Positions 3,747-61,271 of a DNA stretch of 64,000 nucleotides are shown here, piece after piece. The stretch lies in NCBI GenBank assembly GCA_018433015.1, contig JAHDSB010000017.1, positions 456 to 64,455 on the forward strand, in the 5' to 3' direction. The translations under genes were made by a program, and so were the position numbers. The stretch is from Clostridia bacterium. Its GTDB lineage: Bacteria; Bacillota; Peptococcia; DRI-13; SV3-B141. How positions within the stretch are numbered: position 1 is the stretch's first letter; every line of letters begins with the position of its first letter. The notes below the pieces were generated by a model. That model had not been told where the DNA came from. It made no database searches and saw only the letters and a program-made list of their open reading frames with translations.

Positions 3747-5777
3747 ATGAAGATAAAATTATTTAAAAATCTAGCAGTCCTTTGTCTCACTGTTTCACTG
3801 CTTTTACAAAATGTTGTACTCCTCACCCCCGCTTATGCTGCAAAAGATAGACCTCAGGAAAATCTCATTCCTCAACCCCAACCCACTAAAGCAACTAGCA
3901 TCCAGTTGATAAAAAAATCTATGAAAATAAATTGGTTGGAAGACAAAGCGGAGATAACGGTACTATATGAACTATTTAATCCCCATAAGTATAACAAACT
4001 TCTTCCCATGCAGATTTCCCTGCCTTTAGATGAAGAAAAAAAAGAAACAGACAAGGAAAACACGGAAAATAGTGATTTTGCAAAGCCTGATCCACCTTTA
4101 ACTATATTTGTCCAAGATGAAGAAATACCAACAAATTATAGTAGCAGACAAACAAAATATTCCTGGAATATAACCTTTAAACCGGAAGAAAAGAAAGAAG
4201 TTACCATTCATTATAGTATTAAGCTCAAAGGCAACAAGGAACTTCCTCTTACAATTAACGTCAATAATCAAGGACCTACTAAGTGGAATGAAGAACTAGG
4301 ACAATCCTCGCTAACCCTCTACTTTAAAGAAATTCATCCAGGTCTCATCGTGGATATAATGCCTAAAACTTATGAGCTCAAAAATAATTCCCTCATCTGG
4401 CATTGGAATAGTGTGAGCAGTATCGACAATATTTCTGTAAAAGCTAATCTGTACCAGGAACAAGAGATGTGGCAAAGTCTTTTACCCGAACAAGCAAAAC
4501 ATTCCTTGCTGGAATTAGATGAAACCAACAACTACTCAGCTTGTGCAGATTTATTAAAAAAATACGCTCAAGATGTTTCTAAAGAGGAAAAATATGTACT
4601 GATGCTGGGGCAAGCCTACTATTTTAAAAAAACCGGGGAGCTAGACGAAGCCAAAGATTTATGGGAGTATCTCTACAAAAAAGATGTATTATTTCCCCGT
4701 GTTTATTGGGAGTTAGGAAATTATTATTTCAATAAACCCAGTAAAATTGAATCCTATTATGAGCACGTAAAAGAATTACAAGTACATCCTCTGCTGCAAA
4801 AATGGTTGGCTCAGCAAATACCTAATGAAAACGCTGAAGAATCTCCACCGGAAATAAGGGAGACCTCTACCCTGGTAAATAAAACCCTAGATGGGTTAGT
4901 TTTAAAAAGTAATATAGCTGATAAAGATGGTAATATAAAAAAAATAACCTTTAAGTATTGCTGGGAAGACGAACCTGTAGAAGAATATACTACTTTTGTA
5001 CAACCCTTCTTCTATGTTTATAAACCTCTACATTTTATTCCTACTTTTAAACCATATCAGCGTCTCTTTTATGAAATAATTGTGGAAGATTTTAGTGGCA
5101 ACACCACCACAACAGGTCAAAAAGAAGTCTTTTATCTAAATAAAGATATTCCTAGTGAAACCTTTATCCTTAAAGGAGCCAATCTTGTTCTGGGAGACTT
5201 TACTTCTAAAGAGCAAGAAAAAGTTTATAAATGGTTTAAAAGTTATTTAAAAATGGCTAAAGACGCTAAATTTATCCCAGTAGAAGGGCGTAACCCTTAT
5301 TTTATCTGTCTGGGTCAAGACCATAAGTTTATCAAGGAATATAAAGGTCCCTATTTTATTAAATACACTCCTGCTCCTTTTTCTCCCCAAGCAATGAAAC
5401 TCCAGGTACATCGCTACTTCCTTTCCTATTGGTTTGGTGGGGGTTGGGAACAACTTAATGTTGAAGATCTGGAACCCCTAGGTGATGCTCTTCTTTTAGG
5501 CAAAGGATCTGTAGTTCTCACCCTGAAATATCTAAAGGATGAAAATCCCCATAAGTTCCTCGAGCTGCTATCTACTATAGGACAAGGCAATACGTGGGAA
5601 CAAGCCTTAAGCAAAACTTTTTTCCTTACCCCTAAAGAAGCTCGCTTAAAAGGTATTTGGCATGCCTATGGAAATAATGTTTTAGCTGTATTTATTATTG
5701 TCTTTTGTGCCTGGTTAGGAAAAACCGGATATTTGATAAAATTCTTGAATTTTGTGCGCTCCAAATCTACTGTTTAA
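3747..5777 (+). CDS. Secreted, C-terminally membrane-anchored protein of unknown function (676 aa)
   Basis: Track ORF with a strong RBS (AAGGAGG). N-terminal signal peptide ...LLTPAYA/AKD. TPR-like segment (GQAYYFKKTGELDEAKDLWEYLY). C-terminal TM helix (NVLAVFIIVFCAWLG). I recognise no family. Confidence 0.6.
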   Translation: MKIKLFKNLAVLCLTVSLLLQNVVLLTPAYAAKDRPQENLIPQPQPTKATSIQLIKKSMKINWLEDKAEITVLYELFNPHKYNKLLPMQISLPLDEEKKETDKENTENSDFAKPDPPLTIFVQDEEIPTNYSSRQTKYSWNITFKPEEKKEVTIHYSIKLKGNKELPLTINVNNQGPTKWNEELGQSSLTLYFKEIHPGLIVDIMPKTYELKNNSLIWHWNSVSSIDNISVKANLYQEQEMWQSLLPEQAKHSLLELDETNNYSACADLLKKYAQDVSKEEKYVLMLGQAYYFKKTGELDEAKDLWEYLYKKDVLFPRVYWELGNYYFNKPSKIESYYEHVKELQVHPLLQKWLAQQIPNENAEESPPEIRETSTLVNKTLDGLVLKSNIADKDGNIKKITFKYCWEDEPVEEYTTFVQPFFYVYKPLHFIPTFKPYQRLFYEIIVEDFSGNTTTTGQKEVFYLNKDIPSETFILKGANLVLGDFTSKEQEKVYKWFKSYLKMAKDAKFIPVEGRNPYFICLGQDHKFIKEYKGPYFIKYTPAPFSPQAMKLQVHRYFLSYWFGGGWEQLNVEDLEPLGDALLLGKGSVVLTLKYLKDENPHKFLELLSTIGQGNTWEQALSKTFFLTPKEARLKGIWHAYGNNVLAVFIIVFCAWLGKTGYLIKFLNFVRSKSTV

Positions 5778-17059: not shown

Positions 17060-17104
17060 GATATCATCCTCACATTTAGTATTTTCACTGAGAACGCGTA
17101 TATT

Positions 17105-17145
17105 GCGTATATACTGTATATAACGTTCATGTACAGTATATACGC
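17105..17145. promoter_or_regulatory. Putative autoregulatory operator of the YtrA-type operon
   Basis: Perfect 14-bp inverted repeat GCGTATATACTGTA (17105-17118) / TACAGTATATACGC (17132-17145). It lies 46 nt upstream of the regulator start codon. Confidence 0.55.
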
Positions 17146-17266
17146 ATGTTTCTTTATTGTCAATTCTTACTTTTAATTAATTTTTTGCCTAATACTGTAA
17201 ATCCCATTCACACCTTATAGGTTGTCTGAATAAGCTATAGCAAGCTACATTAAGGGGAGATAATTT

Positions 17267-17950
17267 ATGCCTAAAATAAATTTAAATTTTAACCCTCTGT
17301 CCAAAAAACAAGCTAATGTTTCAAATAATAATGAATGTGTATGTACTCCCTTTCAACCTGGACAAGAACTATGGCCTATTTACTGTGACTACTTTAATTT
17401 AGGAGATCCTGCACCCCTTTTTACTCTAGAAGGAGTATATAAATGCAAACGGGAATCCTTCAGTTTAAAAGATTATTTAAAAAAATGGGTGGTTCTTTTT
17501 TTCTATGGTTCAGATTTTACTTTTGTTTGACCTACAGAATTAGCAGCAGTTGCTGCAAAATATAAAGAATGGAGCTGTATTAATACTCAATTCTTAGCTA
17601 TTAGTACTGACAGTATCTATTCTCATAAAATTTTTATTCAGACTTCCCCCTCTGGTCGTACCATTAATTTTCCTCTTCTCTCCGACCGAACACAAAAAGT
17701 ATCTAAAATGTATGGAGTTCTTAACGAAAAAGAAGGTTTCGCGTACCGAGCCGCATTCATTATCGATCCTGAGGGAAGAATTCAGGGTTATCTGGTAAAT
17801 CCTCAGCCCGTAGGAAGAAACATTGATGAAATTATTCGCATCATCAAAGCTCTACAATACCATCGTAAAACAGGGTTAGGTGTGCCAGCAGGATGGAAAC
17901 CTGGAGATCCCGGAATCCCTACCGGTTGGGAATATGTTGGTAAATATTAA
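17267..17950 (+). CDS. prxU: Selenocysteine-containing peroxiredoxin (AhpC/Prx family; TGA at 17528-17530 read as Sec)
   Basis: Track ORFs 17267..17530 and 17708..17950 are in the same frame (441-nt offset), and the only stop between them is the TGA. The continuous translation reads ...WVVLFFYGSDFTFV-U-PTELAAVAAKY...ISTDS...AAFIIDPEGRIQ.... This is the FTFVCPTE Prx active site with UGA at the peroxidatic Cys position. Strong RBS AAGGGGAG precedes 17267. Confidence 0.8.
17540..17559 (+). promoter_or_regulatory. SECIS-like hairpin downstream of the in-frame UGA
   Basis: UUAGCAGC-AGUU-GCUGCAAA. The core is a 5-bp GC-rich stem, followed after an A/A mismatch by two further A-U pairs. It starts 9 nt after the UGA and has a G/U-containing tetraloop. 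Position and size are consistent with bacterial SECIS elements. Confidence 0.5.
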
Positions 17951-17972
17951 GGAACGCTCCCGTTCTAATAAA

Positions 17973-18008
17973 AAACAACCCTGATACCTTTAAATATCAG
18001 GGTTGTTT
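17973..18008. terminator. Bidirectional terminator between the peroxiredoxin gene and ttcA
   Basis: Perfect 14-bp stem AAACAACCCTGATA / TATCAGGGTTGTTT, flanked by an A-run on the left and a T-run on the right. It overlaps the last codons of the minus-strand gene. Confidence 0.75.
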
Positions 18009-18826
18009 CTTTGATCACTTTCCTTATTTTCATCAAAACGTGATTTGTCCCAAAATTTATTACTTTTTTCCCTTATTTCAATCTTTGTCAATTCACGGGG
18101 CCAAAGTTGAATATGCCTTCCTTGACGCATGGCCGCTGCTAGATGGGAGAACACATTGAGGTTGTCTTTTTTTAAATTTCTAATTAAATCTTTTACTTCA
18201 GCCCTTTTTGTCACCTCGTTTACGGGACAAGAACTAGCTATAGGAGTTATTCCTAACTTCTTCACGACTCGTTTTATATCACTTTCTCGTAGATATACTA
18301 AGGGCCGAATTACTGTTATTCCTGTCCTATCCAAATAAGTTTTTGGTAAAAACGTTGTTATTTGTCCCGAATATATTATGCTCATGAGAAAAGTTTCCAC
18401 TGCATCGTCATAATGATGGGCAAAAGCTACCTTATTAAAACCATGATCCTTAGCATAATTATGAATAATGGCTCTACGCATATAGGAGCAACGAGCACAT
18501 GGATTTTGGGTGGGATTATTAAGGATCTCATCTGCCAGTTCAGCTTGTACAATTTCATAAGGGACCTCAAGGTTATTACAAATATCCTTTAAGGGACCAA
18601 AGCTATTTTGATTTTCAGGGTCAAAACCCATATCTACCGTAAGAGCGGCAATCTTCACTGGGAAGGGCAAATGTTTTGTGAATACAGAAAAAGCATATAG
18701 CATCAAAAGACTATCTTTTCCTCCCGATAAACCTATTAAAATATTATCACCTGATTCTACTAAATCAAATTCTATTACTGCTCTTTGTATAGTTCTTATT
18801 ATACTTTTAGGTATCGATGTACGCAT
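17990..18826 (-). CDS. ttcA: tRNA 2-thiocytidine biosynthesis protein TtcA family (PP-loop ATPase)
   Basis: Track ORF 17990..18844. The ATG at 18826 (MRTSIPKS...) lies 8 nt after AGGAGA. PP-loop LSGGKDS. Cys motifs CARCSYMRR and SSCP. Confidence 0.8.
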   Translation of the reverse strand: MRTSIPKSIIRTIQRAVIEFDLVESGDNILIGLSGGKDSLLMLYAFSVFTKHLPFPVKIAALTVDMGFDPENQNSFGPLKDICNNLEVPYEIVQAELADEILNNPTQNPCARCSYMRRAIIHNYAKDHGFNKVAFAHHYDDAVETFLMSIIYSGQITTFLPKTYLDRTGITVIRPLVYLRESDIKRVVKKLGITPIASSCPVNEVTKRAEVKDLIRNLKKDNLNVFSHLAAAMRQGRHIQLWPRELTKIEIREKSNKFWDKSRFDENKESDQRNNPDI

Positions 18827-18976
18827 TTCAATATCTCCTAACACATATATTTAGGTAATCCATAATTACAAATACTCCACAAAAACTGTTAGTAAACATT
18901 AATATTTTCAACATATGAATAAAAATCATCCAAAATTTAAATAATATTTTAAGTAGCAATAAAAGGAGGTGTTTAT

Positions 18977-19132
18977 ATGCCTAATAACAGTATTGGATGC
19001 AATGTTTCAGAATGTAAATATCATGCTAAAAATATCAATCAATGTACTCTAGACCATATTGAAGTTATTAAACATAAGTCTCCTGCTGTAACTACAGAAA
19101 ATACAGATTGTGGTAGTTTTGAAAAAGAATAA
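18977..19132 (+). CDS. DUF1540-like small cysteine-rich protein (51 aa)
   Basis: Not in the ORF track (under 60 aa). AAAGGAGG lies 7 nt upstream. Translation: MPNNSIGCNVSECKYHAKNINQCTLDHIEVIKHKSPAVTTENTDCGSFEKE. It shares the C-x4-C...C...C pattern with ORF 28681..28881. Confidence 0.65.
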   Translation: MPNNSIGCNVSECKYHAKNINQCTLDHIEVIKHKSPAVTTENTDCGSFEKE

Positions 19133-19319: not shown

Positions 19320-19898
19320 CTAATCCTTTGCGTTAGTGGGATTTTCTTCATAGCTCTCTTCAGCACCTGGTCGTGGACAAGGACCGTATCCTGGACCACC
19401 AGGGCATGGGCCACCTGGGCCGGGACCTGCTCCAAAGCCTGGACCGAATCCTGGCCCAGGGCCATATCCCGGACCTGGGCCGGGACCTGCTCCAAAACCT
19501 GGACCGAATCCTGGACCAGGGCCATATCCCGGACCTGGGCCGGGGCCTGCTCCAAAACCTGGACCGAATCCTGGGCCAGGGCCATATCCCGGACCTGGGC
19601 CGAATCCTGGACCAGGGCCATATCCCGGACCTGGGCCGGGGCCTGCTCCAAAGCCTGGACCGAATCCTGGACCAGGGCCATATCCCGGACCTGGGCCGGG
19701 GCCTGCTCCAAAACCTGGGCCGAATCCTGGGCCAGGACCATATCCCGGACCTTGACCGGGACATCCAGGTCCCTGTTCCGGTTGTGGTCTTATACCTGAA
19801 CTAGGTCCAGGGAAACATTCTGTAGTAGCTTCATACGAGAACGATTTTCCACAATAAGGACATTGTATTTCATTAGTTTTAATACTATCTTGGTCCAT
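19320..19898 (-). CDS. Zinc-ribbon-like protein with a long Gly/Pro/Tyr/Phe low-complexity repeat tail (192 aa)
   Basis: Track ORF 19320..19988. The ATG at 19898 (MDQDSIKTNEIQCPYCGKSFSYEATTEC...) is preceded by AGGAGGA (19908-19914). The body is an iteration of GPGYGPGPGFGPGFGAGPGP. Confidence 0.7.
   Translation of the reverse strand: MDQDSIKTNEIQCPYCGKSFSYEATTECFPGPSSGIRPQPEQGPGCPGQGPGYGPGPGFGPGFGAGPGPGPGYGPGPGFGPGFGAGPGPGPGYGPGPGFGPGPGYGPGPGFGPGFGAGPGPGPGYGPGPGFGPGFGAGPGPGPGYGPGPGFGPGFGAGPGPGGPCPGGPGYGPCPRPGAEESYEENPTNAKD
19381..19760. repeat. 60-bp tandem repeat, about 6.5 copies, inside the Gly-Pro gene
   Basis: The unit is ggaccgaatcctggaccagggccatatcccggacctgggccggggcctgctccaaaacct. 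It repeats in register at 19381, 19441, 19501 and 19561. The fourth copy lacks 24 bp, after which the register shifts. Copies differ by only a few substitutions. Confidence 0.9.
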
Positions 19899-20052
19899 AT
19901 ATAAAATCCTCCTTAGTTTATTGTAACCACTACATTCTATGTATAAATACAATAAATGGTTAAACATCTGGGTAAATGGCATAAGCATTTAAAAATATAA
20001 GAACCTACCAAAAAACTAAGGTAGGTCCCTTCTTTCTAAAAATATCTTTTTT

Positions 20053-25129: not shown

Positions 25130-25555
25130 TTAATCACCGGATATAGCTATTTTTTGTTTTTGATTAAATTTATCTCTCTTGAGGGTAACTTCTAATATAT
25201 TGTCTTTAGCCACTGCTCTACCCCCATACTTCTGTACAGCCGTGGGTAAAGCAACTTTAGCCTCAATATCACCTTGCAGAATCAACTGATAACCGTCTAA
25301 ATATATTTTTATATTCTCTTTATTGACCCCCTGATTATGTTTAAATGTCACAATTACATGTTCATCATTGATACGTACCTCAGGATTATTAAAATTAGCC
25401 TCTGTATTAACCCATCCGTTGCTATCTTGTATTGAAGCCGGTCCCATATATTGAGTCATTTGGTTTAATAAACTTTGTGTATTATCAAAAGTTGATTTCA
25501 TAAATTGCCGATATTCCTCCCAAAATTCTGGCGATATCGGAGAATTTATTTGCAT
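25130..25555 (-). CDS. Hsp20/alpha-crystallin-domain protein (CotP/CotM-like)
   Basis: Track ORF. The C-terminal ~90 aa (VRINDEHVIVTFKH...IKIYLDGYQLILQG...DNILEVTLKRD) has the alpha-crystallin beta-sandwich pattern. Confidence 0.6.
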   Translation of the reverse strand: MQINSPISPEFWEEYRQFMKSTFDNTQSLLNQMTQYMGPASIQDSNGWVNTEANFNNPEVRINDEHVIVTFKHNQGVNKENIKIYLDGYQLILQGDIEAKVALPTAVQKYGGRAVAKDNILEVTLKRDKFNQKQKIAISGD

Positions 25556-25645
25556 AGATTCTCACCCCATCTTACTTTCTAATATAAGATATGTATAAAA
25601 CCCAAGAAATGATAAAAGCCGGTATTTAACCGGCCACCTATATTA

Positions 25646-26371
25646 TTACTTTTTAACTAATACTCCGATAAGAAATTGTCGTAAAACATTTTGGAATACT
25701 GGTGCTTGTAATAATTCTAAAAACTCATCAACTGTATCTTTATTAGTCTTTACTCCCTGTACTGAAGCCTGCGGTTTATTTATTCTTCTCTCTTCATTGG
25801 CCTTTATTATATCCATTATTTGCATAAAACTATCCAATTTGAAAATAACTTCATCAAACATATTTTTAGCATTATCTACCTGTCCTTTTGCATTTACAAG
25901 TTTATTCTCCATATTACTTAATTGACCTATAAGTTTTTCACTTACATTTACAGATATATCTTCTTCCTTGCTTCCCTTTGCTTCTTCACTGGCAGTACCT
26001 TCATGAGGAATTTCCTGTTCCGGTGTTTTACTATTATCATACTTTGCCTTTTTATCATCATTAGGTGTATCTTTGATCCCTTGCTCAATTTGAAAATTAT
26101 CTTGCTGGGAAACTTCGTGAGCTTTAGGTTCTGTTTGTTTTTTTTGTTCATTCAGATCATTATTGATGCTTTGTTTATTTTCATTTTCCGGCAATTTTTC
26201 TGCCACATCTCTATTTTCTTCCTTCCGGGAATTTTCATTAGGATAGTTAGGATAATTAGGATAATTAGGATATCTTCTAGGGACCATGTATCTACCAGGG
26301 AAGTAGGGCATAGGTGGTCTAACTTTTTCAGGTCTCCTTTCCCCATCGAAAAAAAAGCGTAAACTCGCCAT
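25646..26371 (-). CDS. Hypothetical protein with a PNY triple repeat, a long acidic/lysine-rich linker and a C-terminal module paralogous to 23927..24268
   Basis: Track ORF 25646..26392. The ATG at 26371 (MASLRFFFDGERRP...) follows AAGAGGTGA. Contains RRYPNYPNYPNYPN. Confidence 0.6.
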   Translation of the reverse strand: MASLRFFFDGERRPEKVRPPMPYFPGRYMVPRRYPNYPNYPNYPNENSRKEENRDVAEKLPENENKQSINNDLNEQKKQTEPKAHEVSQQDNFQIEQGIKDTPNDDKKAKYDNSKTPEQEIPHEGTASEEAKGSKEEDISVNVSEKLIGQLSNMENKLVNAKGQVDNAKNMFDEVIFKLDSFMQIMDIIKANEERRINKPQASVQGVKTNKDTVDEFLELLQAPVFQNVLRQFLIGVLVKK

Positions 26372-26464
26372 TTTGGTCACCTCTTTATACACTTCGCTTA
26401 TTCATCATATGAAAAATATTAAAAAAGCGTGTTTAAAATAATAAAAGAGGTCTCGCCTCTTTTA

Positions 26465-33373: not shown

Positions 33374-33895
33374 TTATATAACCTGCTTATCCTTCTGTAT
33401 CATTGGACCTTTTAAGATTCCACTTTTTTCAAATAGATTTAATACCATATACCCAATTAAACTGCCCCCTAATGTACTTACTAAAAATGGTATTACGAAG
33501 AAAAATACAGCTACCTCTTTTCCGATTAAATATTTAGCTATGGGATAAGCAGCTATACCACCTAATAATCCTGTACCTACCACTTCCCCTAGAGCAGCCC
33601 AGGATTTTCTCTGAGTCATTTTAAAAACTATTCCTGCTAAAAGGGCACCAAACATACTGCCGGGAAAGGCCAGTAAAGAACCTGTGCCCAACATATTTCT
33701 CAGCAATGAAATAAGGAAGGCATTAGCTAGCCCATACATAGGGCCAAGCATAACTGCTGTTATTACATTAATAGCATGCTGTATAGGAAAACATTTTGCC
33801 ACACCTACCGGAATATACACCAGATGAGCCGACATTGTTCCCACAGCAATTAATAGTGCTGAGAGTGTGAGTTTTTTTACATTCATAACTTCCAT
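33374..33895 (-). CDS. thiW: ECF transporter S component for a thiazole/thiamine precursor, ThiW
   Basis: Six-TM protein with ThiW-like FPGSMFGALLAG. A TPP riboswitch lies directly upstream. Confidence 0.75.
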   Translation of the reverse strand: MEVMNVKKLTLSALLIAVGTMSAHLVYIPVGVAKCFPIQHAINVITAVMLGPMYGLANAFLISLLRNMLGTGSLLAFPGSMFGALLAGIVFKMTQRKSWAALGEVVGTGLLGGIAAYPIAKYLIGKEVAVFFFVIPFLVSTLGGSLIGYMVLNLFEKSGILKGPMIQKDKQVI

Positions 33896-33961: not shown

Positions 33962-34106
33962 AAAAAAACACGTACCCTGTCAGGAATACGCGTATTCTCT
34001 AAAATAAAAATAACTTTCATTTCCTACGCTGGTATTACCCAGATCAGGTTCAAGGGTTAAAAAGCTAAAGCGCTTTTCTCTCAGCCGGCCTACCGGCACC
34101 CCGAGT
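33962..34106 (-). promoter_or_regulatory. TPP (THI-box) riboswitch with a terminator expression platform
   Basis: The minus strand reads CUCGGGGUGCCGGUAGGCCGGCUGAGAGAAAAGCGCUUUAGCUUUUUAACCCUUGAACCUGAUCUGGGUAAUACCAGCGUAGGAAAUG. It contains the conserved CUGAGA and ACCUGAUCUGGNUAAUACCAGCG elements. It is followed by the ACGCGUA/UACGUGU hairpin and UUUUUUU. Confidence 0.9.
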
Positions 34107-34187
34107 TATCCAATATTTGATTTTCTATCTATATTGTACAGTTATTAACTCTAAAAAAACAAGTTTTTTAGCTACTTTTTTCAACCT

Positions 34188-35498
34188 CTAAAATCTGTTT
34201 AATCTATAGCCAAACATTTTATTGAGCAAGGCTTCCTCAACCTCATATACATCATGCTCATCCTTTACATCAATATCACCTTGCATCAACTGACTAAAAC
34301 CAATCATTCCTAAGCCCTTTTCAAAGCGCCTTTCTTCCACATACGTGTTCATAAAGTACCCAGGAACATCTTCAACTAGATAACGTACAGTCATAACTAA
34401 TTGATGATTCTTCATTTGGGTATAAAATGTTTTACCTTCATACTCCATCTTCACGATTTGCGCTTTCATCGTCTTTTTACTTCCCTCGAAATCTATGGTT
34501 TGTTCCCAACTATTACCTACTTTCAAGGGTAATTTAATAATAATAGGCTCACGGAGCTTTGAATTTACTTCCTTCTTTTTCTCTCTGGTATTCTTTAATA
34601 CCTTTTCAGTCACAGTACCCTCAACATAATCAAATAAATATTCTATTTGGAAATTGCCAGGAATACCTGAACCATCAAGAAATAGTCCATCAAATTCATA
34701 TATTTGTTGCTCCTCATTTTCACTCTTTTTTTGCAACTGACCAGCATGGGCATATTCTGCTAAACCATAATAATTTAGGCGCGTACCAAGGGGTGGCAAG
34801 AAAGATAATAAATCCACCTTTTCTTTGGGACCAGAGGCGTCAGCATATAGTTTGTAACCAATCACCATGGATTTTTCCTCATCACCCATCCACAATTTTT
34901 CAAAAGAAATAACACCCTGCTTTTCTTTTATTTGACGTTTTTCATAAAAGTTGCTGTTCTTATCTTGATACTGTACTGTATATACTTTGCCATCTTCTGC
35001 CTCTTTAATTTCACTTATGGTGCAAGCTAGTTGATATTCTTTACCTGCCTTATCGCGTACAGTTTGTTCCCATTTAGCGTCTTTTTCTAAAGGTAAGCGC
35101 AAAAGCTCTATTTCAGTAAAAGTATCCATCATCATTTCTGCCTTCGCTAATTTTTGCACTAGGATCTGGTCTTTAATAATATACTGCCCATCTATACTAA
35201 AATCCGCTTTTGCTTCACCATCTGATAAATCTTCTACTCCTCCTGTAAAGTGATAAATCTGTTCTTTTTCTTGCTTATCTATGGAATCAATCCGCATATT
35301 GTGCCCATAATCAGCAAAGCCGCTATAAACCCAGAAATACCCTATTTCTTTAGGCAGCACTGCCTCTAGGCCTTCTGTTTCCGTTACCTCTGTCTGACCT
35401 TGGGGCGCAGGCTTCTGACCTGTATTGCATCCTACCAAGACAATAATTCCTAAAAGCAAAATTCCTAGATAAACAGTAATTTGCTTTAATTTCATCAT
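34188..35498 (-). CDS. Lipoprotein of unknown function
   Basis: Track ORF 34188..35507. The ATG at 35498 follows GAGGTG. Lipobox LVGCNTG. Confidence 0.6.
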   Translation of the reverse strand: MMKLKQITVYLGILLLGIIVLVGCNTGQKPAPQGQTEVTETEGLEAVLPKEIGYFWVYSGFADYGHNMRIDSIDKQEKEQIYHFTGGVEDLSDGEAKADFSIDGQYIIKDQILVQKLAKAEMMMDTFTEIELLRLPLEKDAKWEQTVRDKAGKEYQLACTISEIKEAEDGKVYTVQYQDKNSNFYEKRQIKEKQGVISFEKLWMGDEEKSMVIGYKLYADASGPKEKVDLLSFLPPLGTRLNYYGLAEYAHAGQLQKKSENEEQQIYEFDGLFLDGSGIPGNFQIEYLFDYVEGTVTEKVLKNTREKKKEVNSKLREPIIIKLPLKVGNSWEQTIDFEGSKKTMKAQIVKMEYEGKTFYTQMKNHQLVMTVRYLVEDVPGYFMNTYVEERRFEKGLGMIGFSQLMQGDIDVKDEHDVYEVEEALLNKMFGYRLNRF

Positions 35499-35580
35499 TA
35501 TAAACACCTCATGAATTTATAGTTTGGCTATTGTTATTTATTCCCAACAAAGCCCTTGTTTTATCCCTTTTATCTCCTTC

Positions 35581-51260: not shown

Positions 51261-53969
51261 TCAGCTCTCCTGTTTTTTGTTTTCTAAAGCATCAATAATT
51301 TTATCCATTTCCGCCTGCACTTTGCCATATCCGGTCCAATCTCCTGCTCTCAACTTTTCTTGGCCCTGTCTGTGTAAAGTTACAAGTCTATCTATCAAGT
51401 TTTGTTGGGATTGCTCACCTTCCAATTGGGGATATTCCTCCTCAGGCGCCTCAGCACCGAACAGTGCAGTTAAACCTGCTTCCAAAGAATCTTCCATGAC
51501 AATTTTATTGTTATAAGATACGAATATTTTCTTAAGCTGGGGATATTTATTTTGTTCCGCTTCAATATAGAGAGGTTCAAGATAAAGCAGTGATCCTCCT
51601 ATAGGATAGACTAATAAATTGCCCCGCAAGATCTTACTTCCCCCTGATCCCCATAAGGTTAACTGGCCGGAGATATTGGGATCTTGATCAATCAGAGAAT
51701 CAACTTGAATAGTTCCGGGGACCTGAACTCCTTTGGGAAACTTAAAGAGAATCAAATTTCCATAGTTATCACCGTCAGAACGCCCTGCTAGCCAAGCCAC
51801 AGAATTTTGTTTACGGGCAGGAGTAAAGACCCTCATCAAAACATATTCTTTCTCTTCTTCTCCCGGCAAACGGACAATACTGTAGTAAGGATCTTGAACT
51901 ACTTTTTCTCCCAGATAAGTTTCCTGAGAAAATTCCCATCTATCTTCCCGCGTAAAGAATACGGTAGGATTCATCATATGATAATCCCTTAGCATTAAGG
52001 ACTGTACCGTAAATAAATCTTCCGGATAACGCACATGTTGTCGTAAATCCTGGGGCATTTCTTCTGCCTTTTTAAACAAACCAGGATAAATCTTATTATA
52101 AACCTTAATGATCGGATCTTGTTTATCAAAAATATAGAAGTTTATCTCACCCGAATAAGCATCAATAATTACTTTCACACTGTTACGCAGATAATTATAT
52201 GTCCCTGCTTTATCAATGGCTTGGGAATAAGGATATTTATCTGTATACGTATAGGCATCAATAAAATAATAGAGCTTTCCTGCTTCATCTACTACTAAAT
52301 AAGGATCCTGATCATAAAACAAGAAGGGAGCAATTCGCATAGCCCGTGCTTTTATATTGCGGGTTTCCAGATATAGGCTGTCTGAAGTAATGTAATCCGA
52401 TAATAAATATTTGAACTGTACATCACGAAAAGCTAAAAGTACTTTGTTAAGAAAAGTCATTGGAATACCATTTTTCCCTTGATAGATATATTCCTGATTA
52501 TCATCGCCCATGGGATAGTCAAATTCTTTTAAACCTGTGTTAACTATCACGTTTTCATTAGTAGCCTCACCAAAATATATGCGGGGCTCACTAATGGAAA
52601 AATGTTCTGCTTGAGGAGGTATATCTTTAATTAGATATTCAGGTAACCCTCCCTCTGTAATTATATTAGTAGGACTCATGTCCAAACCAAAACCGTGGGT
52701 ATATTTAAACAATAGGTTATTGAAAGTGCGAGCTTGCTCCGGTAGGGCATTTTGACTCAATTCCCGCCCCGATAACAAGACCTGAGTCAATTTACCATCT
52801 ATCATATATCGATCTACATCAACGTCAACAAAATCGTAGTAAGGACGAATCTCCTGTTGCTGGCTGTATGTGCTCATTGTAGCCCGTTGATCTAAAAGCC
52901 TCATATTATTTATAATATCTTGATTTTCTTTTAAATCTTGTAGACTTAAATCACCTACGGGGTATTCAACTTCTGTTAATTTATCTAAGCCGTAGGCCAG
53001 ATGGGTATATTTAATGTTGCGTTCTAAATAGGGCATTTCCTGTCCCAGTTCATCGGGTTCTACCACAAATTTTTGGTAAAATCCGGGATATACACCATTC
53101 ACAACAATAATTAATAGAAAGAATACCACTATAGAGAAAAGAGCTCGTTTAATCTGTTTACGAAAAGTTAACATGATGAACAAACCAATCAATAGTGAGG
53201 CAATCATCATGATAGTATAAGCCGGTAATCTGGCCCCAACATCGGCAGCACCTGCTCCAATAACTGCTCCTACTTGAGAATAGAGGAGCTCATAGCTGGA
53301 AAGCTTATACTGCAAGGCCTGCCAGGCCATCAACGAACCAAGAAGTATACCTATATGGGTCAATCCTTTTTTTTCTACTCCTGTCAAAATACGCATGGTC
53401 ATATTGCGAGCCGATATTTCCATGCCTCGTGGCATAAAAATCAAGTAAAGAATTACTGATGTAACAAGATTGACTAAAAACCAAGTATTAAAGACCCTGT
53501 ATATTAGCCATAAAAATGGCAGTTTAAATACATAGAATCCAATATCCAGATTAAACTGGGGATCAGTAATCCCAAAAGTTTCAGCATTTAAGGAACGTAG
53601 AATCGAGAGCCACAGGTCACCTGAATTACCAGCCACAATAGTAGCAGTAAAGATGGCTATAGCTAAGGGAATAAGAGGTTTAAAAGGTTTTTTTACTATG
53701 CGGTAAACAAGAAAAATATTAATAAAATTCAATAGAACAGCGGCCGCAAAAATAATAGCCCCAATTGCAAATTTAGCTATAAAAGAACGCCAAAAAACTG
53801 CATCATATCCTAAAGAGCTGAACCAGGCCAGATCTAATTTAACAGATATCAAAACACGAAATAAAACAAAGAGAAATACAACGGCAAATATCAGCCCTAA
53901 TCTGCGCCAAGGCAGCGATGGAAGTTTGTGTTTCTTTTCTTGTGAAGCATCATTATATTGATCAAACAT
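51261..53969 (-). CDS. UPF0182 family large membrane protein
   Basis: 902 aa. About 7 N-terminal TM helices followed by a large extracytoplasmic domain. The family assignment is from memory of this architecture. Confidence 0.65.
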   Translation of the reverse strand: MFDQYNDASQEKKHKLPSLPWRRLGLIFAVVFLFVLFRVLISVKLDLAWFSSLGYDAVFWRSFIAKFAIGAIIFAAAVLLNFINIFLVYRIVKKPFKPLIPLAIAIFTATIVAGNSGDLWLSILRSLNAETFGITDPQFNLDIGFYVFKLPFLWLIYRVFNTWFLVNLVTSVILYLIFMPRGMEISARNMTMRILTGVEKKGLTHIGILLGSLMAWQALQYKLSSYELLYSQVGAVIGAGAADVGARLPAYTIMMIASLLIGLFIMLTFRKQIKRALFSIVVFFLLIIVVNGVYPGFYQKFVVEPDELGQEMPYLERNIKYTHLAYGLDKLTEVEYPVGDLSLQDLKENQDIINNMRLLDQRATMSTYSQQQEIRPYYDFVDVDVDRYMIDGKLTQVLLSGRELSQNALPEQARTFNNLLFKYTHGFGLDMSPTNIITEGGLPEYLIKDIPPQAEHFSISEPRIYFGEATNENVIVNTGLKEFDYPMGDDNQEYIYQGKNGIPMTFLNKVLLAFRDVQFKYLLSDYITSDSLYLETRNIKARAMRIAPFLFYDQDPYLVVDEAGKLYYFIDAYTYTDKYPYSQAIDKAGTYNYLRNSVKVIIDAYSGEINFYIFDKQDPIIKVYNKIYPGLFKKAEEMPQDLRQHVRYPEDLFTVQSLMLRDYHMMNPTVFFTREDRWEFSQETYLGEKVVQDPYYSIVRLPGEEEKEYVLMRVFTPARKQNSVAWLAGRSDGDNYGNLILFKFPKGVQVPGTIQVDSLIDQDPNISGQLTLWGSGGSKILRGNLLVYPIGGSLLYLEPLYIEAEQNKYPQLKKIFVSYNNKIVMEDSLEAGLTALFGAEAPEEEYPQLEGEQSQQNLIDRLVTLHRQGQEKLRAGDWTGYGKVQAEMDKIIDALENKKQES

Positions 53970-54261: not shown

Positions 54262-56367
54262 ATGCTAAAGAATTTCAAGATTAAAACAAAAATAATGGTT
54301 ATGATAGGGCTTGTGGTTTTGCTGGCCTTTATAATTACTAATACCATTGTAGCAACTAAGTCAACAAATATGGCCCAGGAATCTGCTTTCAGCATAGCCC
54401 AAGCCACAGCTGATGAATACGGCAATAAAGTAAAAGCAGAGATGGAAATTGCTATGGACAGTGCCAGAACCGTAGCTCAAACATTTAAAGGTTTAAAAAA
54501 AGTAAATATAACGGATAGAGAAGCTCTAAACGAGATTTTAAAGACTGTCTTACAAGAAAATCCCGCTTTTCTTTCTGTTTGGACCTGCTGGGAACCTAAT
54601 GCCTTAGATGGTAAAGATCTCGAGTTTATTAATAAACCGGGTCATGATGAAACAGGACGCTTTGTATCTCTGTGGAACAATGATGGGGGAAGTATCCATG
54701 TGGAACCTCTGGTGGATTATGATACTCCCGGTACCGGTGATTATTATTTAAATGCTAAAAATACAACACGCGAAGTGATTGCCAACCCCTACTTATATCC
54801 TGTCAATGGGAAAGATCAGCTAATTACAAGCTTAGTTACTCCCATTATTTATGATGGAAAATTTGTGGGAGCAGTAGGAATAGATATTTCTTTAGATACT
54901 TTTCAGGAAATGATTACACAGATAAAACCTTTTGACACCGGATACGCTGCCCTTATTGACAATACCGGGAGCTATGTGGCCCATATTGATACTGGTCATA
55001 TCGGTCAAAACATAGGCAATACCGAGGAAAGAACCACTGCCAAAAAAGCTATAGTTCAGGGTAAAGGCTATGAAACTATACTCACCTCTAATTTGACAAA
55101 TGAAGAAGTTTTAAGAATCTTTACACCTATCGTTGTAGGAAATTCTACAACACCCTGGTCCCTTGCTATTAGTGCACCTATGGATAAAGTGTTAGCAGAT
55201 GCCCATGCTATGAGAAATTATTCTTTAGGAGTAGCAGGCATTTCTATTATTATTATCTTATTAGTAATCTTTTTAGCAGCAAGCAGTATTACTAAACCCA
55301 TTCTTCAAACTACTGCAGTATTAAAAGATATTGCGGAAGGAGAGGGTGATTTAACTAAAAGACTAGAGGTTAAAACAAAAGATGAGCTGGGAGAATTGGC
55401 CCAGTATTTTAATAGATTTATCGGGGATATTCAAAGTATTGTAGGGGAAGTATTAGATAATACTCAGGAACTTAGTGCTTCTAGTGAGGAACTTTCCGCT
55501 ACAGTAGAAGAGATCTCCGCCCAATCTCAAAATGTTAGCTCCAACACTCAAGAGATCGCTGCCGGTATGGAAGAAACCAGCGCTACTACTGAAGAAGTTA
55601 CAGCTTCTGCAGAAAATGTACATAACGCTGCAGTAAGATTAGCCCAGAAGGCTGAAGAAGGAAATCGTTTAATACAAGAAATCAGGCTTAAAGCCGAAAA
55701 GATTAAAACAGATGCCACAGAATCCAGTAAGGTTGTTCACGAATTATATAATGAAAAACAGGCGGGTGTAATAAAAGCTATAGAAGAAGGACAAGTTGTG
55801 GCAGAAATACAAAATATGGCTCAGGTAATCTCCGATATTGCGGAACAAACTAATCTTTTAGCTTTAAATGCTGCTATAGAAGCCGCCAGAGCCGGAGAAC
55901 AAGGAAGAGGTTTTGCCGTTGTAGCGGAAGAAGTTCGTAAGTTAGCAGAGCAATCAGCAGAGACAGTGACCAGTATTCAAGGTGTAATAAAACAAGTCCA
56001 AGCTGCCTTCCATAACTTATCTGAAAATGCTAATGGTGTGTTAGATTTTATTGATAATAAAGTTATTGGAGACTACGAAGCCTTAGTTGAAATAGGAGTA
56101 CAATATCAAAAAGATGCAGATTATGTAGGTAAAATGGTAGAAGAATTTGCTTCTAACGCCCAACAAATTAATCAATCTACTGAAGAGGCCGACAAAGCTA
56201 TGGAAGAAATCGCTCAGGCTATAGAACAAGCCAATACAGGTACTCAAGAGATCTCTAATACCATAACGGAAACTACAAACGCCATTGAAGAAGTAGCAAA
56301 TGTAACTCAGAAACAGGCTACCTTAGCAGAAAAATTAAACATGTTAGTTCATAAATTTAAAATTTAA
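54262..56367 (+). CDS. Methyl-accepting chemotaxis protein (Cache-type sensor, HAMP, MA domain)
   Basis: Two TM helices flank a ~280-aa extracellular domain. Highly conserved signalling hairpin [34 protein letters not shown]. Confidence 0.9.
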
Positions 56368-56505
56368 ATAAAAAACTTTAACCTAACTTCCCTCAAATAA
56401 GAAAGAGCCCCGTTGTTAGGCGGGGTATCATAGGGACAAAAAGTGAACCGGGTATAAATCCCTGTGATGGGGCGGACAGTTTCGGCTGTCCGCCCTTTTC
56501 TGTGT

Positions 56506-57611
56506 TTACGCGGCGGGGCCCGTACTGGCTGATGTGGCGTCGCTGGCGGCGGCAGGGGTATCGTCCATTAAGATGGCATCCCCCTCGTCCAACTCGTCCT
56601 CCTGCGCTTTTTCTGGCTCCACCGGTGTGTCCATCAGGCCGATGTCCCGGTTGTCCTGCTAGGCGGTGCGGGAATACTTCTGCGACTTTTCGCCCACCAC
56701 AATTTTCTCAATGAACAGCCGCAGGATTTCCGGCGTGAGCTCCATAATGTCGCTGCAGCGCTTGGCCTTGTCAATAAACTGCGCGCCACGTTACTCAGTG
56801 AGTTTCGGAGCTGTTCCAGCCGTTGCTCCTACTTTGGAAGCTTTTCCCGTAATTCCGCCTGTTCTGTAGTATACTCCGAGGAGAGCAATCGGAAGTGTTC
56901 GTTGGGAATTCGTCCCAGCACATTGTCCTCATAGAGCCGCTTGAACAGGGTTGTAGGCTCGCCGTCTCGTCGCTTCAGGGTGTGTCAATCTCACGCTGGA
57001 TGCGGGCGATCTCCTGCCGGGTTTCGGCGGTGTTCTTGCGAGTGATATGCTCGACAAACAGCTTTTCCTTCTGCCGGGCATAATGGGTAATCCGCTTTAA
57101 GTCATCCAGCACAATGGTTTTGAGCTGGATTTCCCGGATGTAGTGGACGGTGCACTCCTCTTTCCCGCGCTTTTTGTAGGTAGAGCACATGAAGTTGTTC
57201 TACGTTTCTTTCATGGTATGCGCCCTGTGGAGCACCAGCGTGCCGCCGCAGTCGGCGAAATACACTATTCCAGAAAAAAATTGGGCGTATAAATTTGCTT
57301 GGGTGGGCGCTTTTTGTGCTTACGGATGTCCTGCACGATGTCCCACAGCAAGTCGTTGTCGCCGTACAGGCTATCCACGTTGTTGTTGATGGCGATAAAG
57401 CGGACACCGTAGCTGGGGAAAATCATCTCCGTATACTGCCCCACCAGTAGATAATCCCTGCCGAGCCATGACATATCCTTGACGACGAGAGTTGCGACCT
57501 GATCGCTTTCCACCAGCTATCGGACAGCGTTTCCACAACCTCTCTCATGGTCATGCCCGCCCGGACAATGTAGGATTTGATTTCGTTCCTGTAAGTATCG
57601 CTTTTTCTCAT
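56506..57611 (-). pseudogene. Large serine recombinase, disrupted by frameshifts, internal stops and deletions
   Basis: Minus-strand fragments in three frames:
- ESDQVATLVVKDMSWLGRDYLLVGQYTEMIFPSYGVRFIAINNNVDS (resolvase-domain end);
- FMCSTYKKRGKEECTVHYIREIQLKTIVLDDLKRI (zinc-ribbon region);
- LFKRLYEDNVLGRIPNEHFRLLSSEYT and ELTPEILRLFIEKIVVGEKS (C-terminal coiled-coil region).
At least three in-frame stop codons are present. No catalytic-Ser N-terminal motif is recognisable. Confidence 0.8.
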
Positions 57612-57792
57612 GTTGCCTCCATATTTTTTGTTTGCTCCGCCCAAATAGCGAACAAGATGAAAATAGGCAAAAAATACGCTGTATCCGGTTTTTCGCGCCG
57701 AGTACAGCGTATTTCGTTTGTGGCACAATCCCACCTAGCAAATGCCTGCTTTTTGGGATTACTGTCTTACGGACATCCGCTCATCTTTAGCC

Positions 57793-58248
57793 TCATCGCA
57801 CTCTCGCCAGCATCTCCTCGCCGGAGATTTTACCCTCCACATAATCCCGACGGGCCTGACTGGCGGTGGCGGACCAGGATTTAAACTGTTCCTCGGTCAA
57901 GTCCCTACCGCTGTGTTCCTCGGCATATTTCCCCACAGCCCGGTACCTGCGGGAATAGACCTTGTTGTACTCGGTGAGATATTGCAATAAAAACGTGTCG
58001 GCTTCAATACCTTTTTCAAAGAACAGCTTTGCCCCCACCTGCTTGCAGGTCCGCTTGCCCCTGTATGGTCTGTTGCAGAAATCCCGCTTACGTTTATCGG
58101 TCAGCACGAAATACCGTCCGCAGAGCTTACAATGCTTTACGTACTGTCCGTTTTTCAGCATCTCGGTAAATTCAAAGAACAGCATCTCATCCAGATACTC
58201 AATCAGGTAATAGGGCATCAGGCTCACGCCCTCGCCGTCCTGATGCAT
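57793..58248 (-). pseudogene. C-terminal portion of a Cys-rich accessory protein typical of serine-recombinase elements (probably N-terminally truncated)
   Basis: Track ORF with CKLCGRYFVLTDKRKRDFCNRPYRGKRTCKQVG. I believe this matches DUF6076, but the name is from memory. An in-frame TAG lies 24 codons upstream of the first Met and no RBS is present. The terminator AATACGCTGTA/TACAGCGTATT (57673-57713) follows. Confidence 0.45.
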
Positions 58249-58443
58249 GATCTCCAGTACGGCTGGAGCAGCAGCGTCCCCAACCTGTCCGGCAAGCTGA
58301 AACGCGTCTCCCTACGCTACGGGCGAGGCGGTGGAGCTGGCCAAGGTGCTCGGATACGAAATTATTTGGCAGAAACGAAATAGGTATAATAATTAAAAAT
58401 GTACGATGCAGTGTATTGCTTCAATACTTCTATTCTATTATTA

Positions 58444-58472
58444 TTGACATCTAAAAACAAAAACACTATAAT
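58444..58472 (+). promoter_or_regulatory. Consensus SigA/sigma-70 promoter of the PadR operon
   Basis: TTGACA (58444-58449), a 17-nt spacer, then TATAAT (58467-58472). Confidence 0.7.
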
Positions 58473-58523
58473 ATCAATACACGATATCGATACTCGATAT
58501 TTAAGGCGCGGACGGAGGTTACA

Positions 58524-58835
58524 ATGAAAAATAAAATGCGAGGGCCACTGACAGAACCCATGCTTTATGTGCTGATGGCCTTTTTAAAACAAGATATGTG
58601 TGGCATTGATATTACAGAATATGTGAACCAGCGTACAGGGGGCCGCGTACACCTTGGCCCGGGTACGTTGTATACGATATTGGCAAAATTTCAGGAGGAC
58701 GGCCTGATTGAGGAGGTCGCCGTAGATGGCCGCAAGCGAACGTATCATCTGACGGATAAAGGCAGAGAGACCTATATGGGGGAACTGGAACGTCTACAGA
58801 AATGCTTACAAGATGGGGAGAATGCGTTGCGATGA
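58524..58835 (+). CDS. PadR family transcriptional regulator
   Basis: 103 aa. wHTH with GPGTLYTILAKFQEDGLIEE. RBS GGAGG. Confidence 0.9.
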   Translation: MKNKMRGPLTEPMLYVLMAFLKQDMCGIDITEYVNQRTGGRVHLGPGTLYTILAKFQEDGLIEEVAVDGRKRTYHLTDKGRETYMGELERLQKCLQDGENALR

Positions 58836-59983
58836 GTAAAAAAAGCTGTTGGAAGTTGATACCGGTCAACGGATATGATATTTCTGCCATTGAATGCTAC
58901 TTAGAGCGCATGGCGGCGCAAGGGTTCCTTTTTTCCATGACCGCCGGACCGCTCACTTTATTCTGCCGCGAGGAGCCCAAAGCACTGCAGTTCCATCTCG
59001 AGCCGATACTCAGCAGGGCCGAAGAAGATGCCGAACTGAATGCGCTGTATGAAGATGCCGGCTGGAAGTATCTGGGTATTTTTCGGAACAATTACTTTGT
59101 CTTTGCAACGGAGAACCTGGAGGCGGAAGCCCACACCGACCCCGAAGCACTGGACTATGTGCTAAAGCGCTTTTCCAGACAAAAGCTCCTCAGCGGACTT
59201 GGACTGCTGGCGTTTAACGTTTTCCTGATCGCACTTTATCGCGACGGATGGCCGGGCAGTTTCGGCTGGACCGAGCTGCAATATTTTCCGGTAGAAAGCA
59301 TCAGCAAATATCCGGTGCTGCCCTTATTGCTGTCTGTAGCGGGCCTTCTTCTGCTGGATCTTTCCTATTTGCTGGGATTGCTGTGCCTGCGCCGTTGCCG
59401 CGTAGTAAAAAGCGCAGGCAGGGTATCCCGTTCCGGTTGTCTCCTGGTGGTGGGCATCTTCGTTCTGATTCCTGTGGCGCTGAACACCATTCAACTGTTC
59501 TCCGGACTGGGGTATCGGCCGATTGATTTGGCTGACTCCAATTTTGTTACGCTAAGCGAAATTGAAGGGCCGGAATTTCGTCTCACCGGCGACAGCATGT
59601 ATGCCATGGACTACATTTCCCATGGCGGGACCCTGCTGGACCCGGAATCCTGGTATCTCCGGCAATATGGAGCCTACTCCCATTTCGATGGTGGGATTGA
59701 TATCAACAATGTTCCGCACTTGATTTTGTCTATTTCCCGCTATCCCCTGGATTCCCTGGCTGAGAAACGCACACAGGAGTGGTGTGCCTATAGAGCCGGG
59801 GAGGAGAATTATCAAAATTTGTTGCCTGTCGATGGTCTGGATGAGGCTTATCTGCTGCAAGGCAATCAAAAATGCTATCTTGTTTTGCGTCAGGGCAGAA
59901 CTGTTTTGCGTGCAGACTATCAGGGAGAACAAGACCTGAGCGGATTTCTCAAACGCTTTGCACAGATGATGCAAGCTTTGTAA
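58832..59983 (+). CDS. DUF2812 domain membrane protein
   Basis: Track ORF 58802..59983. The ATG at 58832 overlaps the padR stop (ATGA). The N-terminus (CWKLIPVNGYDISAIECYLERMAAQGFLF) is DUF2812-like. Internal TM helices are present. Confidence 0.75.
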   Translation: MSKKSCWKLIPVNGYDISAIECYLERMAAQGFLFSMTAGPLTLFCREEPKALQFHLEPILSRAEEDAELNALYEDAGWKYLGIFRNNYFVFATENLEAEAHTDPEALDYVLKRFSRQKLLSGLGLLAFNVFLIALYRDGWPGSFGWTELQYFPVESISKYPVLPLLLSVAGLLLLDLSYLLGLLCLRRCRVVKSAGRVSRSGCLLVVGIFVLIPVALNTIQLFSGLGYRPIDLADSNFVTLSEIEGPEFRLTGDSMYAMDYISHGGTLLDPESWYLRQYGAYSHFDGGIDINNVPHLILSISRYPLDSLAEKRTQEWCAYRAGEENYQNLLPVDGLDEAYLLQGNQKCYLVLRQGRTVLRADYQGEQDLSGFLKRFAQMMQAL

Positions 59984-60026
59984 ACAGAAATGACTGCGCT
60001 CAAAACGAGCAGGAAAGGAGACATCT

Positions 60027-61271
60027 ATGAAAACAGTTTATAAGATCCTTCCCGTATCCATCTTCGATATCCCGGGTTTGGAACAGTGGCTAGAGGAACA
60101 AGCCAATCAAGGCCTTTCTCCTGTACATCTCGGTTCCTATGCCAGCTTTACAAAAGACGGCGTACCCGGCACGCGGTACCGTCTGGAGCCTTTGGGGAAA
60201 ATGGGCACGGAGCCCACGCCGGAGCAGCTGGAATTGTACCACAGCGCCGGATGGGAATATGCCTTTCCCATTGCCCGAGCCTATTTCCTTTTTTATACCA
60301 CAGATCCCGATGCCCCAGAGCTGTACTCAGATCTGGCCACACGGGGACAGTCTCTGGACCGCTTAGCAAAGCAAATTAAAAGCACCAGGGTTAAACGCTT
60401 GCTCATTCCGGTTCTTGTGGTTGTAGTGCTGTTGGCTGCGATGCTCTGGCCAGTAAGTCGTTTTGATGTGCAGCCTGACCGGTGGGCCAACTTTCCGATC
60501 CTGCTGCTCTATTTAACCAACCCTATGCTTCTCATTTTCGTCATAACAGTCGCTTTTCAGCTACCACGTGAGTTTCGAGAGTATCGCACACTACTAAATA
60601 CCCATGAAGCACTAAAAAGCGGGCTGATTCCACCGCCGTCACAAATCTCAGGAAAGAGGATTGCTTTTGAAAATATCTCGCAATTGATACTCCTTCCTGT
60701 ACTGGTGCTTTGCTTAATTCTAAACTATATCATCCCGCAGAACAAACCGTTATCACAGTTCGAATTGCCCTATGTGTCCCTGTCGGACATGGAAAATAAA
60801 GATCTTTTTACTTATGATGAGTTGTTTGGTGAAAGCTCCTACTATTCCGAAGATAAAAATCAGACGAATCGGCAATTCTCACTGCTGTCTCCCGGGTGGT
60901 ATGAGGTATCGCAGTATCTCCACAGCGCTCAGGCAGGCACACAGACCAACGCTTTTTCGCCCAACCCAGAGGGCGGCAAATACCGCTATTCTCCCAGCTT
61001 GGATATGGTCCGCTTTTCGCTTCTGGTGTCCGCTTTAAGCCGGTCTGTGGCAGAAGCGCAGTTGGATGCTTACCGGCTTATCAATGTTTATTGGACCTAT
61101 GAGGAAGTGGACTATCCCGGCACCGACTTTGTAATTTTGGCGAAGGAAGAGGATGGGATCTGGCAAATGGCCGCTTTGGGAAGCGGAAAGCATGTGGCCG
61201 TATTCCGCTACGCCGGGCAGGAGAAATTGGCCGACCGCCTAGATTTGCTTTCCAGCATGGTCAATCCGTAG
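60027..61271 (+). CDS. DUF2812 domain membrane protein (second copy)
   Basis: The N-terminus (YKILPVSIFDIPGLEQWLEEQANQGLSP...YHSAGWEY) is DUF2812-like. TM helices are present. RBS GGAAAGGAG. Confidence 0.75.
   Translation: MKTVYKILPVSIFDIPGLEQWLEEQANQGLSPVHLGSYASFTKDGVPGTRYRLEPLGKMGTEPTPEQLELYHSAGWEYAFPIARAYFLFYTTDPDAPELYSDLATRGQSLDRLAKQIKSTRVKRLLIPVLVVVVLLAAMLWPVSRFDVQPDRWANFPILLLYLTNPMLLIFVITVAFQLPREFREYRTLLNTHEALKSGLIPPPSQISGKRIAFENISQLILLPVLVLCLILNYIIPQNKPLSQFELPYVSLSDMENKDLFTYDELFGESSYYSEDKNQTNRQFSLLSPGWYEVSQYLHSAQAGTQTNAFSPNPEGGKYRYSPSLDMVRFSLLVSALSRSVAEAQLDAYRLINVYWTYEEVDYPGTDFVILAKEEDGIWQMAALGSGKHVAVFRYAGQEKLADRLDLLSSMVNP

Follow-up and report, generated by a model that had tools for sequence, protein, structure and literature searches.

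An in-frame UGA and a conserved SECIS-type hairpin mark a probable selenocysteine-containing peroxiredoxin gene in a Clostridia bacterium

Positions 17267-17950 of the plus strand of the window, as we call the whole 64-kb stretch of DNA analysed here, very probably encode one 227-residue peroxiredoxin (Prx) of the Prx1/AhpC type, in which the peroxidatic residue is a selenocysteine (Sec, U88) specified by an in-frame UGA that is recoded by means of a downstream hairpin. The evidence read directly from the DNA and its relatives consists of a single frame, a Prx domain, a conserved TGA, purifying selection downstream of it, a covarying hairpin and the use of TGA as a standard stop elsewhere in the window.

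Translation of 17267-17950 in a single frame gave 227 codons with one internal stop, the TGA at 17528-17530 (codon 88), and a terminal TAA. In the ORF list this frame had been split into 17267..17530 (87 aa) and 17708..17950 (80 aa), both on the plus strand and with starts 441 nt apart. The initial annotation had proposed that the two ORFs share a frame and that the TGA is the only stop between them, and the translation confirmed both points. The read-through protein contains the motif ...FFYGSDFTFV-[TGA]-PTELAAV.... When Cys was substituted at the TGA for a Pfam search, AhpC-TSA (PF00578) was matched over residues 46-173 with an E value of 4.7e-37 and 127.1 bits, against a gathering cut-off of 26, in agreement with the earlier claim of a complete AhpC/Prx fold. 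Further matches were obtained to Redoxin and to 1-cysPrx_C (residues 195-218).

The start of the gene is fixed by a Shine-Dalgarno sequence read from the DNA (AAGGGGAG, 17252..17259, plus strand, 7 nt before the ATG) and by an in-frame TAA at 17261-17263, upstream of the ATG, which rules out a longer N-terminus. As the Pfam domain starts at residue 46, residues 1-44 (17267..17398) constitute an N-terminal extension, which is Asn-rich and includes C24, C26 and C40, the last in a YCDYF motif. In the orthologues the extension is rich in Tyr, Asn and Pro and runs to roughly 35-65 aa, with a good AGGAGG-type ribosome-binding site ahead of it in each case. Conservation is only partial for the Cys just upstream of the first strand, which stands in YCDYF in the window and in PFCAQ in a more distant group. 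On the other side, the gene is followed by a bidirectional terminator-type hairpin at 17970..18011 (inverted repeat I2, with 17-nt arms of 94% complementarity set between an A-run and a T-run), which it has in common with a convergent PP-loop ATPase gene (17990-18844, minus strand). No conserved neighbour or redox partner was common to the window and 12 orthologue loci; prx is a stand-alone unit in variable gene contexts.

Upstream of prx, a near-perfect inverted repeat with 18-nt arms (TGCGTATATACTGTATAT / ATGTACAGTATATACGCA) at 17104-17146 (plus 17192-17202) overlaps a strong leftward sigma-70-like promoter (TTGACA-17-TATACT, 11/12 matches). The divergent operon behind this promoter encodes a GntR regulator (124 aa, YtrA-like), an ABC ATPase and an ABC-2 permease, and the repeat is probably the operator of this regulator. 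As a third, half-site-like copy of the repeat is found about 65 nt upstream of the prx start, prx might be co-regulated with the GntR operon. Downstream, a small Cys-rich ORF of 51 aa (18977-19132, plus strand) lies between the PP-loop ATPase gene and a gene of Gly/Pro repeats, and is annotated as DUF1540 in a near-identical GenBank record (contig JALHGZ010000002.1, GCA_022838045.1). The repeat gene is a 222-aa ORF (19320-19988, minus strand) consisting largely of Gly/Pro/Tyr/Phe repeats (GPGPGYGPGPGFGPGFGAGPGP...) with a Cys-containing N-terminal segment; it had no Pfam match, and the ORFs overlapping it in other frames are repeat artefacts.

Farther from prx, a TPP riboswitch (Rfam RF00059, 67.5 bits) at 34004-34113 on the minus strand, directly upstream of the gene for the thiamine-precursor transporter ThiW (33374-33895, minus strand), was the only Rfam match in the window at gathering score. 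Long ORFs of 676, 439, 248 and 141 aa had no Pfam match at E <= 1e-5, in regions that include 3747-5777 (plus), 34188-35507 (minus) and 25130-26392 (minus). A GC-rich island at about 56400-61200 (GC 0.46-0.58 vs about 0.36 elsewhere) carries a DUF6076 ORF, two DUF2812 ORFs and about 1.1 kb (56367-57492) lacking a long ORF, and may be acquired DNA. A permissive Rfam scan of 56000-59000 gave nothing credible. The near-identical GenBank contig does not reach the island, breaking off a few kb short of it at about window position 53100.

Alignments to ordinary 2-Cys peroxiredoxins placed the TGA on their peroxidatic Cys, as the initial annotation had claimed, so that the segment G81-S-D-F-T85-F-V-U88 (17507..17530, plus strand) is the counterpart of their PxxxTxxC motif. 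A scan of a genome collection for orthologues returned 15 loci, 12 of which have TGA at exactly the same codon, with 71-76% protein identity across it. The carriers include Thermohalobacter berrensis, Anaeromonas frigoriresistens, Brassicibacter mesophilus, Sporosalibacterium faouarense, Maledivibacter halophilus, Tepidibacter mesophilus, Clostridiaceae bacterium 35-E11 and several metagenome-assembled genomes. The other three loci, from Alteribacter aurantiacus (L013) and two archaeal outgroups, have TGC or TGT instead. All seven more distant homologues that were found on metagenome contigs (48-66% identity) also have TGA, giving, with the window and the 12 genome loci, a Sec clade in which the codon is TGA in 20/20 members. 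Besides L013 and the archaeal outgroups, a Cys codon (TGT/TGC) occupies the site in two further relatives, L027 and L028.

Comparison of the window with 11 orthologues over the 139 codons that follow the TGA gave pN values of 0.16-0.18 and saturated pS values of 0.65-0.87, with dN/dS of 0.04-0.13 where dS was computable. Such strong purifying selection argues that the region after the TGA is translated. The gene therefore presents the pattern by which selenoproteins are recognised, that is, an in-frame UGA opposite Cys in homologues with the protein conserved on both sides.

Within the active site, Thr85, U88 and Arg161 (codon 17747..17749, in an invariant column of the 37-sequence alignment A2) are present, and at the Pro of the PxxxTxxC/U motif the window has Gly81, most of the Sec clade having G, A, S or T. 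Where typical 2-Cys Prx have their resolving Cys, the window protein has Val206 (17882..17884, aligned to PDB 4fh8), the segment reading GV-PAGW in the window vs EVC-PAGW in typical 2-Cys Prx. The xxCPxGW motif was found in 0/26 Sec-clade proteins and in most of the neighbouring Cys-type Prx. The Cys-codon relatives L027 (P0011) and L028 (P0017, from Lacrimispora sp. 38-1) are nested inside the Sec clade and read FGFVCSTE and FGIICSTE, respectively, vs FTFVUPTE. As both the catalytic Thr and the Pro that follows the site are also changed, the conversion from Sec to Cys may, judging from these residues, have been joined with a loss or change of peroxidase function.

A SECIS-type hairpin was found at 17543..17556 (plus strand), beginning 12 nt after the TGA. 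Positions 17543-17547 pair with 17552-17556 to form a stem GCAGC/GCUGC, closed by the loop AGUU (17548-17551), with a folding energy of -8.4 kcal/mol, all within the codons for Ala-Ala-Val-Ala. The initial annotation had located a hairpin at 17540-17559, 9 nt after the TGA. Its hairpin with an AGUU loop stands, and its limits have to be drawn in, since the core starts at 12 nt and the outer A-U pairs (17540-41/17558-59, beyond an A.A mismatch) are absent from the predicted fold and lack conservation, the outer column pair forming in only 8/20 homologues. By themselves, the local 76 nt of the window do not fold with significant energy (z = -0.93), and it is thus other genomes that provide the support for the hairpin. 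A single instance of TGA-N12-GCNGCNGTNGCNG is present in the window vs 0.00 in 100 shuffles. The hairpin motif by itself is found twice more, in dctM, lacking both an upstream TGA and complementary loop ends, and hence it is the combination with TGA that is diagnostic and not an AAVA-type motif alone.

Among the TGA genes, the sequence GC(A/G)GC-NGUN-GC(U/C)G is present at a fixed 12 nt from the TGA in 20/20, with the four-pair core intact in every one and a spacer (CCUACAGAAUUA in the window, 17531..17542, plus strand) of constant length. In 18 sequences one of the core pairs is A-U, and in the other two (L004 and L021) it is G-C through compensatory changes, both at third positions of Ala codons and both synonymous. 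Covariation is also seen between the two ends of the loop (A..U in 17, C..G in 2, G..C in 1, with 0 non-complementary cases). The loop of L021 is GGUC, which we take to be that of E. coli fdhF as well. The covariation score of the hairpin was 0.156, compared with 0.072 +/- 0.020 in shuffles, and was reached by 0/500 of them; moreover, RNAalifold independently returned the same four-pair core. At the level of codons, synonymous entropy is 0-0.41 bits across Ala-Ala-Val-Ala, against 1.0-2.3 bits in most other four- and six-fold degenerate invariant codons of the gene, and synonymous variation is also low at codons +1 to +3 after the TGA, in the spacer. Mere codon bias was rejected as the cause of this conservation, as 3-4 different codons appear in each of the other invariant Ala, Val and Gly columns and both members of the pair are altered in the two deviating sequences.

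The Cys-codon relatives act as a natural control, the hairpin being damaged or lost with the Cys codon. In L027, a close relative of the Sec-form L019, the codon is TGT, an otherwise invariant C-G pair is broken and the folding energy is -1.5 kcal/mol, and in L028 (Lacrimispora) and L013 (Alteribacter) the hairpin motif is wholly absent. There is no Rfam family for the hairpin, a permissive scan of 17200-18050 having given only chance-level matches. In the bacterial SECIS model of Zhang and Gladyshev, as summarised in PMC13188914, the apical loop has 3-9 nt, the upper stem 4-16 bp and a G within the first two loop positions, the distance from the UGA to the loop is 16-37 nt and the minimum free energy is -7.5 kcal/mol or lower. 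The window hairpin agrees with this published consensus on every count, with a 4-nt loop (AGUU), a stem of 5 bp, a G at loop position 2 with a U after it, a UGA-to-loop distance of 17 nt and -8.4 kcal/mol. A hairpin where a bacterial SECIS is expected, as had been noted before, is thus upheld, and it is conserved and covarying. In 12/20 TGA genes the minimal hairpin, taken alone, does not reach the -7.5 kcal/mol that the model requires (-4.8 to -7.1).

Searches were also made for the Sec machinery. ARAGORN found no tRNA, including tRNA-Sec, in the 64-kb window or in the 12 orthologue loci, and Pfam scans found no SelA, SelB or SelD among the 50 window ORFs. Neither the 10 kb of extra upstream flank on JALHGZ010000002.1 nor the orthologue flanks contained selA, selB, selD or tRNA-Sec. 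A scan of the window for frames with a single in-frame TGA gave no credible second selenoprotein gene.

Public databases consistently mis-annotate this branch of Sec-peroxiredoxins, either as fragments or with Trp at the TGA. In the near-identical GenBank contig the gene is called as an 87-aa and an 80-aa product, just as the initial annotation had expected gene callers to report fragments, and the NCBI entries for the orthologues are 'redoxin domain-containing' fragments of 127-136 aa. Among the best 120 database matches, 26 have Trp at the Sec site, evidently through the use of a TGA-as-Trp code in translation, and 23 are C-terminal fragments whose first residue lies beyond the site. With its members entered as Trp calls, fragments and stubs, the branch is invisible to the one curated model (NF040737) and absent from annotation-based selenoproteome counts.

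These same entries lend some colour to explanations other than Sec insertion. The 26 homologues with Trp, together with the lack of Sec machinery in the window and its 10-kb flank, would agree with a UGA that is read through without Sec, whether the code is reassigned (Trp or Gly), the stop is suppressed by a near-cognate tRNA or Cys is inserted. We consider this highly improbable. TGA is the terminator of 10/44 other Pfam-supported ORFs in the window, which are intact under table 11, so the standard genetic code is in use and a reassigned one is ruled out by stop-codon usage. Moreover, a Trp at the peroxidatic position would abolish catalysis, and a conserved NGUN hairpin at SECIS distance would have no part to play in plain read-through. 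The Trp calls themselves lie mostly on very short metagenome contigs, none of which matched its query under table 11, as would be expected if the gene caller had been reading TGA as Trp.

The chance that the TGA is a real stop, and that the locus is either a pseudogene or codes for a truncated protein of 87 aa, the 80-aa ORF behind it being unrelated or a remnant, is slighter still, even though gene callers annotate exactly these two products, NCBI holds the orthologues as short fragments and no Sec machinery was found in the window. Against it, the TGA has been kept at one codon in 20 genes despite saturation of their synonymous sites, and the 139 selected codons downstream contain no other stop or frameshift; the 87-aa product would, in turn, end one residue before the catalytic residue, devoid of the active-site Arg and of most of the fold. 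Finally, although TGA is a single base away from TGT and TGC, a sequencing or assembly error hiding a Cys codon is effectively refuted, since the exact 87-aa and 80-aa fragment sequences recur on 10-11 independent contigs of the NCBI and Logan assemblies, and the same TGA appears in 19 other homologues from different projects.

Decoding of the UGA as Sec thus remains the preferred reading, supported, as an inference already drawn in the initial annotation, by the TGA in the 19 other homologues, by selection downstream and by the conserved, covarying hairpin. What we infer beyond these data is the actual insertion of Sec, the binding of SelB, and the reductant and recycling route. The UGA at 17528-30 would be recoded by the usual bacterial route, in which SelB with Sec-tRNA(Sec) binds the hairpin at 17543-17556, with its NGUN tetraloop, and delivers Sec instead of allowing termination; from its fit to the known system, this is the best-supported mechanism. 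In the protein, by analogy with what is known of peroxiredoxins, U88, placed by Thr85 and Arg161, would attack the hydroperoxide as a selenolate and become a selenenic acid. As the C-terminal resolving Cys is missing, recycling of U88 would most likely be of the 1-Cys type, in which an external thiol protein, thioredoxin for example, reduces the residue directly, with a selenenyl-sulfide to the semi-conserved Cys40 of the N-terminal extension as a possible intermediate.

A bolder proposal, which we regard as rather unlikely, is that of a distinct '1-Sec' Prx subfamily, unrecognised by annotation models, in which the N-terminal Cys (YCDYF/PFCAQ) would serve as the resolving residue through a selenenyl-sulfide. 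Its features would be the absence of a C-terminal resolving Cys, the change of the motif Pro to Gly, Ala, Ser or Thr in most members, a SECIS within the Ala-Ala-Val-Ala codons and, in the closest relatives, a Tyr/Asn-rich N-terminal extension. To our knowledge, recycling through a selenenyl-sulfide with an N-terminal Cys is undescribed for PrxU or for typical Prx.

For the host, the gene would indicate that its uncultured Bacillota lineage decodes Sec. For a UPF0182 protein encoded in the window, the nearest named relatives were Peptococcaceae or Clostridia metagenome-assembled genomes, with 64-67% identity. The 20 aligned sequences provide a clean natural example of a minimal NGUN-loop SECIS contained within four codons, which could be a compact test case for SECIS prediction and engineering. 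What is known of Sec decoding and of Prx chemistry is left unchanged by the window gene.

We compared the window protein and its hairpin with the known systems that they resemble. The best matches among solved structures were typical 2-Cys Prx (among them 4fh8 AcePrx-1, 4kb3 and human PRDX2 1qmv; E about 1e-44, 2.4e-44 at best, residues 45-217). The active-site motif DFTFV-C/U-PTE, the conserved Arg and, near the C-terminus, the segment PAGWKPG are common to these enzymes and the window protein. The window protein differs from them in having Sec for the peroxidatic Cys, Val206 for the resolving Cys, Gly81 for the motif Pro and an extra N-terminal extension of 44 residues, and with Val206 in the place of the Cys of xxCPxGW it is not a typical 2-Cys Prx. 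A C-terminal arm devoid of resolving Cys, matched by 1-cysPrx_C at residues 195-218, recalls the 1-Cys Prx (Prx6 type), whereas the sequence as a whole is closer to Prx1/AhpC than to Prx6-type models. The NCBIfam models PRK13189/13190/13191 scored below the PrxU and AhpC models on the window protein. With the bacterial SECIS consensus, whose prototype is E. coli fdhF, the hairpin shares a small stem-loop just after the UGA and inside the coding sequence, G then U at loop positions 2-3 and flanking loop bases that can pair; the window element differs in being very short, with a core of 4-5 bp.

The closest known system is PrxU, reportedly described by Sohling et al. in 2001 as a selenocysteine-containing peroxiredoxin of Eubacterium (Peptoclostridium) acidaminophilum. 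Sec-peroxiredoxins are an experimentally supported family of prokaryotic selenoproteins with a TxxU motif (PMC13188914), first described from E. acidaminophilum in 2001. By 2006, 12 of them had been predicted, two in Alkaliphilus metalliredigenes (in the spelling of that paper), and an Alkaliphilus fragment (P0028) is among the close matches of the window protein. The window protein resembles PrxU in its AhpC/TSA fold, in Sec at the peroxidatic position (TxxU) and in its anaerobic Bacillota host, and is set apart from it by model score. NF040737 (peroxi_PrxU) was its best-scoring NCBIfam model, at 179.8 bits vs an equivalog cut-off of 270, so the earlier comparison with PrxU holds as to kind and not as to equivalog status, for which at least 270 bits are required. 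Eighteen members of the clade or close relatives likewise gave 150-193 bits with NF040737 or fell under the 1e-45 reporting threshold. On these scores, the window Prx clade appears to be a separate branch that NCBI's PrxU model would not call PrxU. Sec-peroxiredoxins as a kind have been known since 2001 and the window gene would not surprise a specialist; as far as its sequence allows us to judge, it appears to work like PrxU and yet, by the NF040737 test, to be no PrxU equivalog.
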